Of a stretch of DNA of 19,059 nucleotides, positions 4,767 through 15,793 are shown in pieces. How positions within the stretch are numbered: the stretch's first letter is position 1; the number at the start of each line of letters is the position of its first letter. The stretch comes from an uncultured Deferribacteres bacterium (GTDB lineage Bacteria; Zhuqueibacterota; Zhuqueibacteria; Zhuqueibacterales; Geothermadaptataceae). A program made the position numbers and the translations under genes. The stretch spans positions 1 through 19,059 of the forward strand of contig CAXHAT010000156.1 of NCBI GenBank assembly GCA_964014485.1, given 5' to 3'. Below the pieces are notes generated by a model. That model did not search any database. It had not been told where the DNA came from and saw only the letters and a program-made list of their open reading frames with translations.

Positions 4767-4834
4767 TGTCGTTCAGGAGGAATCTATTTGGCCCAATCCT
4801 TTAGTTCAGCCAAATAGACTCATCCTGAATGACA
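4767..4834. repeat. REP-like inverted doublet, family A (TGTCATTCAGGAGGAATCTATTT)
   Basis: Left arm 4767-4792 tgtcgttcaggaggaatctatttggc and right arm 4809-4834 gccaaatagactcatcctgaatgaca are 23/26 complementary. The same motif occurs at 9757, 10188 and 10308. Confidence 0.9.
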
Positions 4835-4864
4835 CGATTGGCGGAGCGTGAAAACGACAGTTAG

Positions 4865-5007
4865 CCTGAACTATTCATAAGCGTCATTCCCGCGCAGGCG
4901 GGAAGCCAGAAATACCAATGACTGGAGTGCAATTCTGGATACCCGCCTGTGCGGGAATGACATTTTGAGCAGTTGAGTGTAAATTGGCGGTTAATGAATA
5001 ACTCAGG
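4865..5007. mobile_element. 143 bp MITE-like element with CCTGA.. terminal inverted repeats and TTAG direct repeat (IS1380-like ends)
   Basis: TIRs cctgaactattcat (4865-4878) and atgaataactcagg (4994-5007) match 12/14. TTAG flanks both sides (4861-4864, 5008-5011). Non-coding. Confidence 0.7.
4883..4961. repeat. REP-like inverted doublet, family B (GTCATTCCCGCGCAGGCGGGAA)
   Basis: gtcattcccgcgcaggcgggaagccagaa ... ttctggatacccgcctgtgcgggaatgac; each arm is itself palindromic (TTCCCGC-N4-GCGGGAA). Confidence 0.9.
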
Positions 5008-5046
5008 TTAGAAATCAAAAAATCTCAGGATTAACTTAGAACAGAA

Positions 5047-7783: not shown

Positions 7784-8530
7784 TTGTCCATTTTTCGCGA
7801 CCTGTTAAAAACGGCGAATGAGCGCGGCGGCGGGTACATCGTGCTCATCGATCCGGACAAGCTCGAAAAGGCGAAAAGCATTGATCTGGCGGCAAAAGCG
7901 GCGCGCGGCGGTGCGGACGCAATTTTTGTCGGCAGCAGCATGCTGCTCAATTCCGGGCTCGACGACCTGGTCAAAGCGATCAAAAACGTTGTTGACATTC
8001 CGGTCATCATGTTCCCCGGCAGCACGATGCAAATTTGCAAACACGCCGACGCGATTCTTTTTTTGTCGCTGATTAGCGGTCGCAACCCGTACTATTTAAT
8101 CGGCGAACAAGTCAAGGCGGCGCCGATCATCCGCCATCATGGCGTGGAGCCAATCAGCACCGGTTACATGCTCATCGAATCCGGCAAATTAACCAGCGCA
8201 GAATTTATGAGCAACACGCGCGCAATGCCGCGCGGCAAATTTGACATTGCGAAAGCCACGGCGCTGGCCGCACAATACCTCGGCATGAAAATGATCTACC
8301 TCGAGGCTGGCAGCGGCGCCGAAAAGGCGGTTAAAGTCGAAATGGTGCGTGAAGTTTCGGACTACGTCAACCTTCCGGTTATCGTCGGCGGCGGCTTGCG
8401 CAAGCCGGAACAAGCCAGAGCCCGCGTTGAAGCCGGGGCGAATTTTATCGTCACGGGCAATGTGCTCGAATCCAACTCCGATCTCAGTCTTATCAGAGCT
8501 TTCGCTGAAGCAACGCATGTGAATGAGTAA
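7784..8530 (+). CDS. Geranylgeranylglyceryl/heptaprenylglyceryl phosphate synthase (PcrB/GGGPS family, group II-like)
   Basis: VLIDPDK, ADAIFVGSS, PVIMFPG, LSLISGRNPYYLIGEQV, STGYMLIESG, YLEAGSGA, IVGGGLR, IVTGN; TTG start after GGAGA. Confidence 0.93.
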   Translation: MSIFRDLLKTANERGGGYIVLIDPDKLEKAKSIDLAAKAARGGADAIFVGSSMLLNSGLDDLVKAIKNVVDIPVIMFPGSTMQICKHADAILFLSLISGRNPYYLIGEQVKAAPIIRHHGVEPISTGYMLIESGKLTSAEFMSNTRAMPRGKFDIAKATALAAQYLGMKMIYLEAGSGAEKAVKVEMVREVSDYVNLPVIVGGGLRKPEQARARVEAGANFIVTGNVLESNSDLSLIRAFAEATHVNE

Positions 8531-8544: not shown

Positions 8545-8574
8545 TGGTCCTAAAATATAAACAGCTATCGTTTC

Positions 8575-8862
8575 GTCATTCCCTCGGAGGCGGAAATCCA
8601 ATAAATTGCGCAAGACTTCTGGATTCCCGTCTCCACGCTGGTGCGATAAAAACAATGTGGATAACTTGCAAATGTCTCATTAGCGCCGGGCTTCAGCCCG
8701 GTGATGAGCGTGAATTCTTTCTTCTTTTTCTCCCATCGCGCTGGCGCGATGGGAGAAAAAGGGGATGCGCTTTACCTCGTCCCCGCGCTGAAGCACGGGG
8801 CTAATAAGAGCATCGAGTTATCCACGATCTCTTTATCGACGTGCGCTTCTGCGGGAATGACA
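8575..8862. repeat. Family B REP doublet whose right arm is split by an inserted element
   Basis: Left arm gtcattccctcggaggcggaaatcca (8575-8600). The right arm starts tggattcccgtctcc (8620-8634) and resumes gcgggaatgaca (8851-8862). Confidence 0.75.
8644..8838. mobile_element. MITE-like insert with 23 bp terminal inverted repeats, enclosing a family C REP pair and a perfect hairpin
   Basis: cgataaaaacaatgtggataact (8644-8666) and agttatccacgatctctttatcg (8816-8838) match 19/23. Inner inverted pair 8675-8704 / 8780-8809 matches 25/30. Central 18 bp perfect IR at 8724-8761. Confidence 0.7.
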
Positions 8863-8909: not shown

Positions 8910-9716
8910 ATGACATCTCAGGTGAAACAGCTTTACGATATACATTCTCACGTCCTGCCAAAAATCGACGACGGCTCAACCTCGTGGGAAGAAACCATGG
9001 CGATGGTTCGCCAAGCGTACGAAAGCGGCACGACACAGCTCGCAATCACGCACCATATGATTACCGCCAGAGATTTTGACAAAGAAAATGAGATTCTTGA
9101 GAAATTCGCCCAGCTCAAGGAGCTGCTGAAACGCGAGCAAATTCCGCTCAAGCTGCATCTCGCCGCCGAGCTTTATTACAGCCCCGATCTTGAACTTGAA
9201 CATCGCATCTCGACTTATAACAACAACGGGAAGTACTTTCTCGTCGAATTTCCGATGCAAGGGATTCCCAAGTTTGCGGACGACAAGTTTTTCGAATTCA
9301 TCGTCGATGGGAAAACGCCCATTCTCGCACATCCGGAAAGAAACTTGGGCTTGGTCCGCAACCCAATGCGCGCCTACGAATTCGTGCAGCGCGGCGTGTT
9401 GATGCAAATCAACGCCGGCAGCCTCGACGGCATGTACGGCGAGCAAGTTCGGCAATTGGCTTTTAAACTATTGGACGCGCGACTCGTCCATTTCATCGGC
9501 AGCGACGGGCATAATTCAACGCGCCGCCCGCTCATCATCGGCGACGCTTATCGAATCATGAAAGAACACTACGATCAAGATTACTTACAGAAGATTTTTC
9601 ACGAAAACCCTTGGCGCGCCATGCACGGCGACGAACTCAAAGTACCCGAACCGCTGCCAATCGTCGCAACGCCGGAGAAAAAACGCTTTGGGCTTTTGAA
9701 AAAATTGGGTTTTTAG
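8910..9716 (+). CDS. PHP-family tyrosine-protein phosphatase (CpsB/CapC/YwqE type)
   Basis: DIHSHVLPKIDDGS, YFLVEFP, PILAHPERN, MQINAGSL, FIGSDGH..RRP. ATG 8910 is preferred because the longer ORF start lies inside repeats. Confidence 0.92.
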   Translation: MTSQVKQLYDIHSHVLPKIDDGSTSWEETMAMVRQAYESGTTQLAITHHMITARDFDKENEILEKFAQLKELLKREQIPLKLHLAAELYYSPDLELEHRISTYNNNGKYFLVEFPMQGIPKFADDKFFEFIVDGKTPILAHPERNLGLVRNPMRAYEFVQRGVLMQINAGSLDGMYGEQVRQLAFKLLDARLVHFIGSDGHNSTRRPLIIGDAYRIMKEHYDQDYLQKIFHENPWRAMHGDELKVPEPLPIVATPEKKRFGLLKKLGF

Positions 9717-9756: not shown

Positions 9757-9781
9757 TGTCATTCAGGAGGAATCCATTTTG
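9757..9781 (+). repeat. Family A REP-like unit upstream of the GIY-YIG gene
   Basis: tgtcattcaggaggaatccattttg is 24/25 identical to the reverse complement of 10308-10332. Confidence 0.9.
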
Positions 9782-9857
9782 ACTACGGGGAAAGAAGCCG
9801 TTATTTTCACCTGCAATTCGGCGAGGAAGTTTCTTACAAACTCTGCCAAGTACGACC

Positions 9858-10148
9858 ATGAGCAAAGGCAACTACTACGTCTACATCACGACAAACCCAC
9901 GAAAAACAGTGTTCTACACCGGAGTGACAAACAACCTGAAAAATCGAATAAAACGACATTTTCTCAACCGGGGTGACGATCAAACTTTCGCTGGAAAATA
10001 TTACTGCCACAAACTCGTCTATTACGAATATCACACCGATATCAACTTTGCGATTGCCAGAGAAAAAGAAATTAAGGATATGAACAGGGAGAAGAAATGG
10101 GAGTTAATCGCAACAAAAAATCCGAACAAGAACTTCCTGCTTGTTTGA
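9858..10148 (+). CDS. Small stand-alone GIY-YIG nuclease family protein (UPF0213-like)
   Basis: 96 aa: YYVYI...FYTGVTNNLKNRIKRH...KLVYYE...AIAREKEIK, with the conserved Tyr pair, Arg and metal-binding Glu; AT-richer than neighbours. Confidence 0.93.
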   Translation: MSKGNYYVYITTNPRKTVFYTGVTNNLKNRIKRHFLNRGDDQTFAGKYYCHKLVYYEYHTDINFAIAREKEIKDMNREKKWELIATKNPNKNFLLV

Positions 10149-10187
10149 AAAGGCATTAACATATTTTTTCTTCAAAACGTCTCTGCT

Positions 10188-10332
10188 TGTCATTCAGGAT
10201 GAATCTATTTTGAAGCGGGGCGATAGAGCAGTCTTCCCCAAGACGCTCTTATCAAAGAATCTTCGCTCTTTGTCGCCGATCGCTCCATCTATCATCCAAG
10301 GGTCAGGCAAAATAGATTCCTCCTGAATGACA
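10188..10332. repeat. Family A REP-like inverted doublet downstream of the GIY-YIG gene
   Basis: tgtcattcaggatgaatctattttg (10188-10212) and caaaatagattcctcctgaatgaca (10308-10332) are 24/25 complementary, with a 95 nt spacer containing a hairpin at 10222-10253. Confidence 0.92.
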
Positions 10333-10377: not shown

Positions 10378-12459
10378 ATGTTCACACTCCTCAACAGCTT
10401 CCTCGCCTGGGCCTTGCTAGCCGCGGCCATTCCGATTCTAATTCATCTGTTCACGCGGAAAAAACTGAAGACCGCGCCGTTCAGTACGCTGCAATTTCTC
10501 AAGGAAATGCAGAAAGAGAAAATCCGGCAGGTCAAAATTCGGCAAATTCTATTGCTCATTTTGCGCACGTTGCTCATTCTTTTTCTCGTCATGGCCTTCC
10601 TGCGCCCGACGCTCAAAAGCAACGCCGCGTTTGTCGGCGATGACGCGAACACGGCGATGGCGGTGATCGTCGATAACAGCCTCAGCATGGGCGTGACCCG
10701 GCTTGGGCAGAGCAAATTTACGGCGGCGGCCAATAAGGCGAAAGAACTGGCGGGAATCATGCAAAACGGCGACGAAATCCATTTCATCACCGCAGGCTTT
10801 CCGGCCCGGAAAGTCAATCCCGAGCCTGTGCATTCGTCGTCGTCGGCGTTGCAAACGTTGGCCAAAATCGAGCAGGAAGCTGTTGGAACCGATCTTGACG
10901 GCGCCTTAGCTTTGGCCGTTGACGCACTCGCGCGCTCCAATTTGCTCAACAAAGAAATCTACCTGCTCTCAGACAACCACGCCGCTCTTCCGAAAGATTT
11001 GGCAAACGCCGGGACGCCGCAAAACATCCGCCTGTTCCATCTCGAATGGGAAGAAGAGACCGCAAGAAATCTGGCGATCACCGGTCTTGAAATCAAAAAC
11101 CAGATTTTCGAATTGCACCAGCCAACGGAAGTACAAATCACCGTCGCGAACACCGGGTCGGTGGACGAAAACGGCAAATTGGTCTACCTGCTGCTCAACG
11201 GCGGACGCGTGGCGCAGACGCAGATCGACGTTCCGGCCAATCAGGAGCGCAGCGTGCTCATGCGCGTCGTGCCGGACAAGCCGGGCTACCAGCTTTTGAC
11301 CGCGGAACTGGAAAACGACAATCTTTTGGCCGACAATCGCCGGTTTGGACAATTTCACATTCCTGAGCAAACAAAAGTCTTGCTCGCTGGCAAAACGGCG
11401 CGCGACCGGCTTTTCGTTCGCCTGGCGCTGGGGCAATCGCAGACGGAGGGAACGCTGGCGTTGACGGAAGTCGACGCAGATCGCCTCGCCGCCGAGACTT
11501 TTTCGGCTTATGACGCAGTGATTTTGTGCAACATCCCGCGCGTGCAGGGCGTGACCGCGCAAAAGCTGCAAACCTTCGTGGAAATGGGCGGCGGGGCGAT
11601 GATTTTTCTCGGCGGAGACGTGGATTTGCGCAACTACAACGACGAAGTTTTCGCGCGCTTCGAGATCGGCGTGCTGGGCGAATCGATTGGCAGTCTGACC
11701 GACGGCGCTAACATTCTGCGCATCGGCAAAACCAATTTTGACCATCCGGTTTTTCAGGGGATTTTTAGCGGTGAAAAAGAGAAGCGCGAAATCGATTCCC
11801 CGGCGTTTCGTTTCACCGTTCTGGCGCGCCCCAACGATGAAGCCGAAGTCATCATGCGTTACTCTAACGACGCGCCGTTTTTACTGGAAAAACGATTCAA
11901 GCAAGGCGTGCTTTTTACATTTCTCGCTTCTGCGGACGCGAATTGGTCGGACTTGACTTTTAAGGGCATCTTCGCACCATTGGTCAACCGCAGCGTGCGC
12001 TACGTCTCCGAACAGGGCGGCAGTCGCGGGCAGGAAATTCTCACTGGCGAGACCGCCGCGACCTCGCTCACAGGCTTGAACTTGCAACAATTTGAAGTGG
12101 AGACGCCTGACAAAGCCGTGCAGCGCTTGCGTCCGCAAGTGAAGGGCGGCGCCTACCTCGTCTCGCTCACAGAGACCGGCGATGCGGGCTTCTACGCCCT
12201 CGCCGCCGACCAGCAAACACGCTTCGTTTGGGCCGCCAATTTCGACCCGGCGGAGCCGCGCCAGTCTGAGATCGATGTGGAACAATTGGAAACTATCTTC
12301 GGCGAAGAAAACGTCCTCGCCCTGCCCGCCGAGGCTCCCCTCGCAAGCAGCATCGCCGACCTGCGCTTCGGCACGGAACTGTGGCGCTTGTTTTTGATTT
12401 TGGCTTTAATTACTGCGCTGACGGAGATGTTGCTGTTTCGGTCGAAGGCCGGGGAATGA
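10378..12459 (+). CDS. BatA-type N-terminal double-TM / vWA domain membrane protein
   Basis: AIPILIHL...FSTLQFL...LLLILRTLLILFLVMAFLRP N-terminus, MIDAS motif VIVDNSLSM, GTDL, IYLLSD, Ig/CARDB-like and GATase-like segments, C-terminal ELWRLFLILAL...EMLL TM anchor. Confidence 0.88.
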   Translation: MFTLLNSFLAWALLAAAIPILIHLFTRKKLKTAPFSTLQFLKEMQKEKIRQVKIRQILLLILRTLLILFLVMAFLRPTLKSNAAFVGDDANTAMAVIVDNSLSMGVTRLGQSKFTAAANKAKELAGIMQNGDEIHFITAGFPARKVNPEPVHSSSSALQTLAKIEQEAVGTDLDGALALAVDALARSNLLNKEIYLLSDNHAALPKDLANAGTPQNIRLFHLEWEEETARNLAITGLEIKNQIFELHQPTEVQITVANTGSVDENGKLVYLLLNGGRVAQTQIDVPANQERSVLMRVVPDKPGYQLLTAELENDNLLADNRRFGQFHIPEQTKVLLAGKTARDRLFVRLALGQSQTEGTLALTEVDADRLAAETFSAYDAVILCNIPRVQGVTAQKLQTFVEMGGGAMIFLGGDVDLRNYNDEVFARFEIGVLGESIGSLTDGANILRIGKTNFDHPVFQGIFSGEKEKREIDSPAFRFTVLARPNDEAEVIMRYSNDAPFLLEKRFKQGVLFTFLASADANWSDLTFKGIFAPLVNRSVRYVSEQGGSRGQEILTGETAATSLTGLNLQQFEVETPDKAVQRLRPQVKGGAYLVSLTETGDAGFYALAADQQTRFVWAANFDPAEPRQSEIDVEQLETIFGEENVLALPAEAPLASSIADLRFGTELWRLFLILALITALTEMLLFRSKAGE

Positions 12460-12460
12460 A
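12355..12460 (+). repeat. Direct repeat copy 1: 3' end of the BatA/vWA gene
   Basis: gccgacctgcgcttcggcacggaactgtggcgcttgtttttgattttggctttaat...tttcggtc...gaatgaa, repeated at 13263-13369. Confidence 0.93.
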
Positions 12461-13262: not shown

Positions 13263-13369
13263 GCCGACCTGCGCTTCGGCACGGAATTATGGCGCTTGTT
13301 TTTGATTTTGGCTTTAATAACCGCGCTGGCGGATAATGTTGTTGTTTCGGTCAAGAGGGTTAGAATGAA
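13263..13369 (+). pseudogene. Direct repeat copy 2: displaced, frameshifted 3' fragment of the BatA/vWA gene
   Basis: Encodes ADLRFGTELWRLFLILALITALA, then a 1 nt insertion (ggataatg vs ggagatg). After the shift it reads MLLFRSRGLE* versus MLLFRSKAGE* in the intact gene. Confidence 0.88.
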
Positions 13370-15515: not shown

Positions 15516-15558
15516 TTTCAAAACCTACTCCAATCCCTTCCCGGAGAACAATTTGTAA

Positions 15559-15751
15559 CTGATGTTACGCAGGCATCGTTTGACGTGCACGGTCAGAGTC
15601 TGAGGGCAGCTTTTGATTCTCATTAGCTTCGCTCTTCAGAGCTGAGATTTTTGAAGACGGATGTCATCTCTTCCGCCGGGCTGAAGCCCGGCGCTAATGA
15701 GACAAGATTTGCTATAAGACTCAGTATATGCGCTACCGCGCGTAACATCAG
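15559..15751. mobile_element. 193 bp MITE with 12 bp perfect TIRs and 7 bp target-site duplication
   Basis: ctgatgttacgc (15559-15570) and gcgtaacatcag (15740-15751). TTTGTAA flanks both sides (15552-15558, 15752-15758). Carries a family C REP pair; 15676-15704 is the exact reverse complement of 8673-8701. Confidence 0.88.
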
Positions 15752-15793
15752 TTTGTAAGCGTTTCATGCGCATAAATTACAAACATTCAAGTT

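Follow-up and report, generated by a model that had tools for sequence, protein, structure and literature searches.

Organisation of the locus

The window, by which we mean the whole analysed stretch of 19 059 nt, is an entire contig (C156) of an 8.4 Mb assembly in 465 contigs. It holds an open reading frame of 96 amino acids encoding a GIY-YIG nuclease and five copies of a 25-mer repeat, all exactly where a preliminary description of the sequence had placed them. The features are listed here with mismatches counted against the copy at 10308.

4767–4791, plus strand: repeat copy, 2 mismatches
4810–4834, minus strand: repeat copy, 3 mismatches
4767–4834, no strand: gene-less doublet of the same unit, 68 bp, one of nine of that length
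4882–4962, no strand: doublet of the canonical NTS/SRM type (long-stem, as published for Ssn), a separate family adjoining the short-form doublet
8931–9716, plus strand: CpsB/CapC PHP phosphatase gene, flanking the insertion site on the left
9757–9781, plus strand: repeat copy, 1 mismatch; upstream single hairpin unit with a TGTC tag, an ATTCA-GGA-GGAAT core, C and a T-rich tail
9858–10148, plus strand: gene for a 96-aa single-domain GIY-YIG nuclease, divergent Ssn-type (cd10448-like)
10188–10212, plus strand: repeat copy, 1 mismatch; downstream unit; left arm (ATTCA-GGA-TGAAT, perfect 5-bp stem) of a tail-to-tail doublet spanning 145 bp
10308–10332, minus strand: reference repeat copy, 0 mismatches; downstream unit that forms the doublet's right arm and lies at the outer end of the insertion
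10378–12459, plus strand: BatA/VWA gene, flanking the insertion site on the right

In the 68-bp doublets sequence conservation ends at the TGTC tags, and the one at 4767–4834 can be folded into a single long hairpin (z −8.3). The adjoining NTS doublet is enclosed by a short inverted-repeat shell (4865–5007), itself bounded by TTAG direct repeats at 4861–4864 and 5008–5011, the end motif being present in 35 copies genome-wide. An NTS-like doublet also occurs at 8574–8862, its second arm apparently broken up by more palindromic elements nested there. A different dispersed repeat end (AACTGATGTTAC) is found at 8530, 15558 and 18966, with an inverted partner at 15740–15754 and palindromes enclosed in 15558–15754. 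The BatA gene has its 3′ end in two copies (12355–12460 and 13263–13369; 71 nt at 93% and a further 34 nt); the duplication surrounds a PIN-domain gene and its partner ORF, continues into the start of a Ymh-domain ORF, and looks like an integration scar. Within the window there was no Rfam match and no tRNA, and a promoter and terminator scan was at chance level only.

Family placement of the nuclease

The encoded protein is shorter than 150 aa and has GIY-YIG as its sole domain (Pfam PF01541, E 3.2e-14). Its AlphaFold model (pLDDT 94.8) matched GIY-YIG folds, the best matches among solved structures being UPF0213/YhbQ and Slx1 GIY-YIG proteins (PDB 1zg2, 1ywl and 6seh). These share the fold of the window protein, yet fall outside the Ssn clade in both trees described below, and only 1 of the 15 outgroup rows is flanked by a hairpin. 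NCBIfam matches to UvrC and intron endonucleases were weak and far below cut-off, and the protein is therefore neither.

Small GIY-YIG proteins of the class cd10448, GIY-YIG_unchar_3, flanked by NTS/SRM hairpins have been described as the Ssn family (Chenal et al. 2025, PMC11893778). Ssn proteins and the window protein are alike single-domain GIY-YIG proteins of about 95 aa, and the residues mutated in SsnA (Y6, Y17 and E64) align with Y9, Y20 and E69 of the window protein. Across 54 close homologues R30, H34, Y48 and N88 are invariant. Identity to the N. gonorrhoeae SsnA orthologue (L181) is 39% over 83 aa. In trees of about 100 columns and a small outgroup, the window protein and Neisseria SsnA form one clade with the YhbQ/Slx1-like outgroups apart, the support being 100/98 with 63 rows (7 rows of duplicates and fragments removed) and 100/97 with 75 rows (duplicates, fragments and 34 hairpin-less metagenome loci removed). 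Sequence comparison thus assigns the window protein to a divergent Ssn branch that is either sister to the canonical group or nested in it.

The homology criterion of the Ssn paper was a tblastn E below 1e-10 over 75% of SsnA (PMC11893778). With L181 replacing the N. meningitidis protein as query, the window gene gave E 1.8e-8 over 79 of 94 residues and so falls short of that cut-off; two paralogues in the same genome, C343 and C229, are recovered under it. Among named organisms, those with the closest homologues are candidate division KSB1 and Ca. Zhuqueibacter, which suggests a KSB1-type host. Adhaeribacter arboris has a homologue 63% identical to the window protein, and the Ssn paper's table enters this species as positive by psiblast and negative for an rpsblast score over 100. 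The accessible part of that paper's peer-review file mentions an FCB-only subgroup, ‘SsnC’, that was dropped, and the window branch may be this subgroup. A search of viral contigs with the single protein returned no relative.

A short tagged hairpin

The preliminary description took the five copies of the 25-mer for members of a REP-like family. A genome-wide count, which it had proposed, gives 94 copies at up to 3 mismatches, beyond chance, and 440 at up to 6. A wider subfamily with the window's tail numbers 146 copies. In the core common to the copies, the GTC tag precedes a stem of 5 bp with a three-base G-N-A loop, and C follows the stem; an 18-nt core pattern matched 392 times against 0–1 in three block-shuffled genomes, and in a second count 390 times against 0 for the reversed pattern. 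When the loop was left free in the pattern, G started it in 402 of 416 copies and A ended it in 404, and across copies the stem is 4–5 bp and the loop 3–5 nt. Nearly all (409 of the 416) have T-A or G-C as their third stem pair, which is a tally of copies and not of events; the covariation may reflect few events. The pattern is in line with the SsnA authors' statement that permutation was tolerated only at the third pair (peer-review file of PMC11893778). The fifth stem position is A in 77 of 416 copies, mostly unpaired.

Two observations bear on whether the unit folds by itself. First, the closing pair is varied (T-A 220, T.G 65, A.G 56 and C-G 41 in the 416 copies) and seldom C-G, and the hairpin may therefore need protein to form. 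The G-N-A loop is that of the d(GNA) triloop mini-hairpins, stable in DNA but most so with a C-G closing pair (PMC3201870), where the window repeat mostly has another; as with d(GNA) triloops, the hairpin would exist on one strand only. Second, ViennaRNA gave isolated units no folding advantage over shuffles (z −0.8 to +0.6, 6 of 6 strands), so that the hairpin claim rests on sequence pattern and not on energy. Units lying close together are strongly ordered, 188 of 201 such pairs being inverted tail-to-tail with the tags outward.

The 13-nt hairpin, with its 5-bp stem and G-N-A cap, differs from the Ssn target, which has an 8-bp Watson–Crick stem (PMC11893778). The published SRM search string matches none of the five window copies, though it does match the separate doublet at 4882–4962; none of the 18 close loci and 1 of the 80 metagenome loci is flanked by a match to it. 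In 42 of 46 loci of the window branch the 5-bp stem is followed by G..A, where C-G follows in 11 of 12 loci flanked by SRM. In shape the 13-nt form resembles a 19–22-nt form that lacks its upper stem.

Association of the nuclease gene with the hairpin

An enrichment of the hairpin beside close homologues of the nuclease, which the preliminary description had proposed as a check, is present: at 54–74% identity the 13-nt hairpin lies within 400 bp in 16 of 18 distinct loci (on both sides in 12), compared with only 1 of 25 more distant GIY-YIG loci. In metagenomes a tagged hairpin occurs within 300 bp of 46 of 80 loci, where shuffles predict 2.85, and takes the 13-nt form in 9 and the 19–22-nt form in 37. 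The detectors used found no hairpin at 34 of the 80 metagenome loci and 2 of the 18 close loci. By these detectors five loci of the Ssn clade (L005, L034–L037) have no tagged hairpin within 400 bp, and they may have a target of different form or have lost theirs. The flanking hairpins are oriented and GTC-tagged, with an A-T/T-A stem base and C after the stem.

The genome encodes four small GIY-YIG paralogues, each 31–54 bp from a GTC-tagged hairpin of a different form, although for C229 the hairpin pattern was derived from the flanks of the gene itself, which makes that case circular. C343 and C229 are the likely partners of the NTS doublet at 4882–4962. Upstream of the C343 paralogue, before position 433, is an AAC-rich stretch that may resemble a DGR template repeat. 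Hairpins also lie on both sides of a reverse-transcriptase-like ORF (C94:27112–28125), and a similar ORF adjoins the homologue L025.

Hairpin form follows protein phylogeny, a covariation for which the preliminary description had proposed a test. On the 75-row tree the 13-nt label changes twice, against a shuffled mean of 20.6 (0 of 500 shuffles as low), and one 22-row clade of 13-nt loci has support of 97/93. The exact tail of the window repeat occurs only beside the three proteins of its 98/87 subclade (3 of 23 loci scored). Copy number also tracks the gene across 41 related genomes, with 21–762 copies in those that carry a close homologue (n = 16, median 191.5) and 0–49 in those without (n = 25); in the carrier with the fewest copies the gene has a stop. 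The gap persists when a single family is taken (p 0.003 for 14 genomes against 5), a value that overstates the case because related genomes are not independent. The layout around the gene varies from heads-out (L002, L019, L026) to direct (L003, L004, L022, L024). Three homologues (L020, L029, L001) sit in long BIME-like tandem arrays of alternating hairpins, with 9–13 units within 400 bp.

We considered whether the repeat is spread by a RAYT or another Y1 transposase, the GIY-YIG gene being a passenger or chance neighbour. In favour of this, there are 10 Y1/RAYT loci in the genome, and about 10% of ordinary ORFs (549 of 5523) have a tagged hairpin on one side within 300 bp. Flanking on both sides, on the other hand, is found for only 29 of the 5523 by crude calls (0.5%), and no tagged hairpin lies within 1.6 kb of any of the 10 Y1/RAYT loci. 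The nearest is at least 1607 bp from nine of them and the contig of the tenth has none, two loci being at contig ends with one flank unseen. It is thus the GIY-YIG gene and not a RAYT to which the repeat is tied, as first proposed. Most of the Y1/RAYT loci carry palindromes of their own; a separate palindrome family flanks each of several genes (C1, C5, C27, C64, C76, C241, C361), and many enzyme–repeat pairs thus coexist in the genome. Since, in addition, the GIY-YIG tree tracks the hairpin form, and Di Nocera et al. 2013 (PMC3733652) likewise found no tyrosine transposase with CGTC repeats at its flanks, this alternative is already largely refuted and we regard it as very improbable.

Insertion site and mobility

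The gap between the CpsB/CapC and BatA genes measures 661 bp here and 85 bp without 9757–10332, and in 7 of 8 same-family loci it is 82–136 bp; it was between these genes that the preliminary description had suggested looking for empty sites in relatives. The GIY-YIG gene is absent from this site in 19 of 19 other loci, and in two of these the gap holds a gene-less doublet. The 576-bp block 9757–10332 is an insertion between conserved genes. Its nuclease gene has a GC content of 40%, compared with 51% and 56% for the neighbours. As the 10188 unit is a direct repeat of the 9757 unit and the unit ending at 10332 is inverted, the moving unit could be 9757–10187 or 9757–10332.

Several measurements speak to how often the gene moves. 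Among 20 homologue loci true neighbours are clearly common to only 3 pairs (a common protein match was found for 25 of 190 pairs, most being antisense frames over the nuclease gene that were set aside by inspection). The gene is under purifying selection, with dN of 0.03–0.10 and dS from 0.74 to saturated in 10 of 10 pairs. Few common neighbours together with dN far below dS fit a gene that is kept under selection and moves rarely, not a bursting IS. Near-identical copies, fixed ends and target duplication, the marks of an autonomous insertion sequence, are not seen: the gene is present in one copy, and the layout of the flanks varies among homologues. No target duplication above shuffles was detected in 52 free doublets. 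Free doublets show a C-rich bias 5–7 nt before the tag (60% and 62% C), a position just outside the modelled SsnA cut site.

In a stronger form of mobility, the one meant by the preliminary description, the nuclease would itself cut out 9757–10332 and insert it whole, and the 62–69-bp doublets, among them 4767–4834, would be internal-deletion derivatives moved in trans. Clean removal of the block, which leaves a gap within the range of relatives, agrees with this, as do the low GC of the gene, gene neighbourhoods that differ even among 5 genomes of one genus, and conservation of the 68-bp doublets that stops at the tags. A joint in a contig, running from 9757–9785 through three letters to 10297–10332, has the 68-bp length of the gene-less doublet family and could be read as such a derivative, but its short side is only 29 letters and the best reading is that it is a further genomic doublet. 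Nor did blastn return any match joining the leader of the gene to the right arm, and no empty allele was seen in three DNA sequencing runs from one study. The genome has no near-identical second copy, the closest paralogue being 71% identical with saturated synonymous sites, and hairpin orientation differs among homologues. We therefore consider self-movement of this unit unlikely.

Transposon-like shells

Shells bounded by terminal inverted repeats (TIRs), of three kinds, hold 304 of 507 hairpin copies; 198 copies are free, including all five of the window. The main type comprises 99 paired TIR elements, 92 with hairpins inside and often with 7–10 bp direct repeats, and the second type 17 paired elements, 13 of them with TNA direct repeats. 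Hairpin doublets inside shells are seen, for example, at C44:25090 and C5:36922, and at C50:19540 one shell is nested in another. Some shells carry RAYT-type or other unrelated palindromes instead. The shells offer another route for hairpin spread: by capturing doublets and then multiplying they would have produced more than half of the copies in the genome.

This raises the possibility of a restriction-like role only, in which the nuclease cuts incoming or transient single-stranded DNA at hairpins and the repeats are spread chiefly by DDE-driven MITE shells and recombination. SsnA reduces integration of NTS-bearing transforming DNA in vivo (PMC11893778), and strong purifying selection, the large share of copies in shells and the unrelated palindromes that the same shells hold would all suit such a role. 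It leaves aside the free copies, does not lead one to expect that copy number tracks gene presence, and by restriction alone the position of the gene within its own targets at many different sites is unexplained. We take this role to be a real possibility, if a somewhat doubtful one; the likelihoods we give to it and to the self-moving unit overlap with our main reading, that the enzyme nicks its own hairpin.

Discussion

REP and REPIN sequences are usually linked to a single, slowly moving RAYT (HUH Y1) gene that is under purifying selection and flanked by its own tagged hairpins. The window system resembles RAYT/REP in having a flanked enzyme gene and gene-less inverted doublets across the genome. 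It differs in its tag, which is GTC where that of REPs is GTAG, and in its enzyme, which lacks HUH/tyrosine chemistry, so that no covalent strand transfer is expected. The window gene is accordingly not the HUH Y1 transposase by which a REPtron is recognised.

The likeness to Ssn is closer. Ssn loci and the window locus both have oriented GTC-tagged hairpins with a stem opening A-T, T-A and C after the stem, and Ssn genomes and the window genome each contain hundreds of hairpin copies. Ssn enzymes cut the flanking hairpins only in single-stranded form and do so a few bases 5′ of the tag; the four enzymes assayed all had long-stem targets (PMC11893778). SsnA limits transformation in N. meningitidis, and the Neisseria effect is restriction of incoming DNA, not mobility. 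The discussion of that paper already likens the layout to IS200/IS605 and REP transposases and suggests repeat expansion as a hypothesis. The preliminary description had left the novelty of its nuclease–repeat concept open; the Ssn/NTS pairing is in print with biochemistry, and the RAYT–REP analogy and repeat expansion are in print as a hypothesis.

By tag and layout, the window repeat also belongs to the CGTC REP super-family of Di Nocera, De Gregorio and Rocco 2013 (PMC3733652), which was said to be without a dedicated transposase and includes dRS3. CGTC REPs and the window repeat have in common a CGTC/TGTC tag, an A-T stem opening, a short tail and a predominance of inverted dimers; in CGTC families 1–4 the stem is 8–9 bp and the loop 4–5 nt, and the window repeat is shorter-stemmed. 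GIY-YIG is mentioned nowhere in the accessible text of PMC3733652, and neither ‘Nocera’ nor ‘GTAG’ occurs in that of PMC11893778, so that the Ssn and CGTC REP papers are unlinked in that text.

We propose that the window gene encodes a divergent Ssn site-specific single-strand DNA nuclease with the repeat as its own target. By analogy with the published relative, the enzyme would be Mg-dependent, would bind the tagged hairpin only in single-stranded DNA and in one orientation, and would cut a few bases 5′ of the tag. The window branch is predicted to read the GTC tag, the first two A-T/T-A pairs, the 5-bp stem, a sheared G.A closing pair and the post-stem C, features that would make the 13-nt form the minimal target. 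The proposal rests here on the family placement of the protein, on its conserved catalytic residues and the purifying selection acting on it, on the tight link between gene and hairpin, and on a hairpin form that matches the clade; together these make it probable that the enzyme binds and nicks its own hairpin in single-stranded DNA.

How such nicks might spread the repeat is a weaker part of the proposal. Where host enzymes repair nicks made next to hairpins in transient single strands, new singlets and doublets could arise, and such repair might occasionally move the gene itself, in a manner like that of RAYT and GTAG REPs but without a covalent intermediate. We know of no strand-joining step for a hydrolytic nuclease, and host repair would have to supply the joining. 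That nicks copy the hairpins, and now and then move the gene, strikes us as about evenly balanced. More broadly, and tentatively, since we would put it at somewhat less than an even chance, Ssn nucleases (fewer than 100 residues, hydrolytic and without strand transfer) may be the missing enzymes of the CGTC REP super-family, copying hairpins and sometimes their own gene, with loss of the upper stem having produced the 13-nt G.A-capped form on two or more occasions.

The window system is real and well supported, and it extends the published Ssn system; the concept itself is not new. The literature searched, which left subscription papers, figures, theses, patents and authors' online files largely uncovered, gave no account of the short G.A-capped form or of repeat mobility driven by Ssn. 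The mini-hairpin of 13 nt is shorter than any target in the accessible text of the Ssn paper (PMC11893778), and, with its 18-nt site, an enzyme of 96 aa would offer a compact tool for single-strand DNA cleavage. The Ssn family, itself only recently described, is thereby extended to a large branch whose targets are invisible to the published motif; because that motif is blind to the short form, published repeat counts for such genomes are underestimates. With four Ssn-like paralogues and four hairpin forms, this genome is a ready test of what spreads CGTC-type REPs, a question that has stood since 2013.
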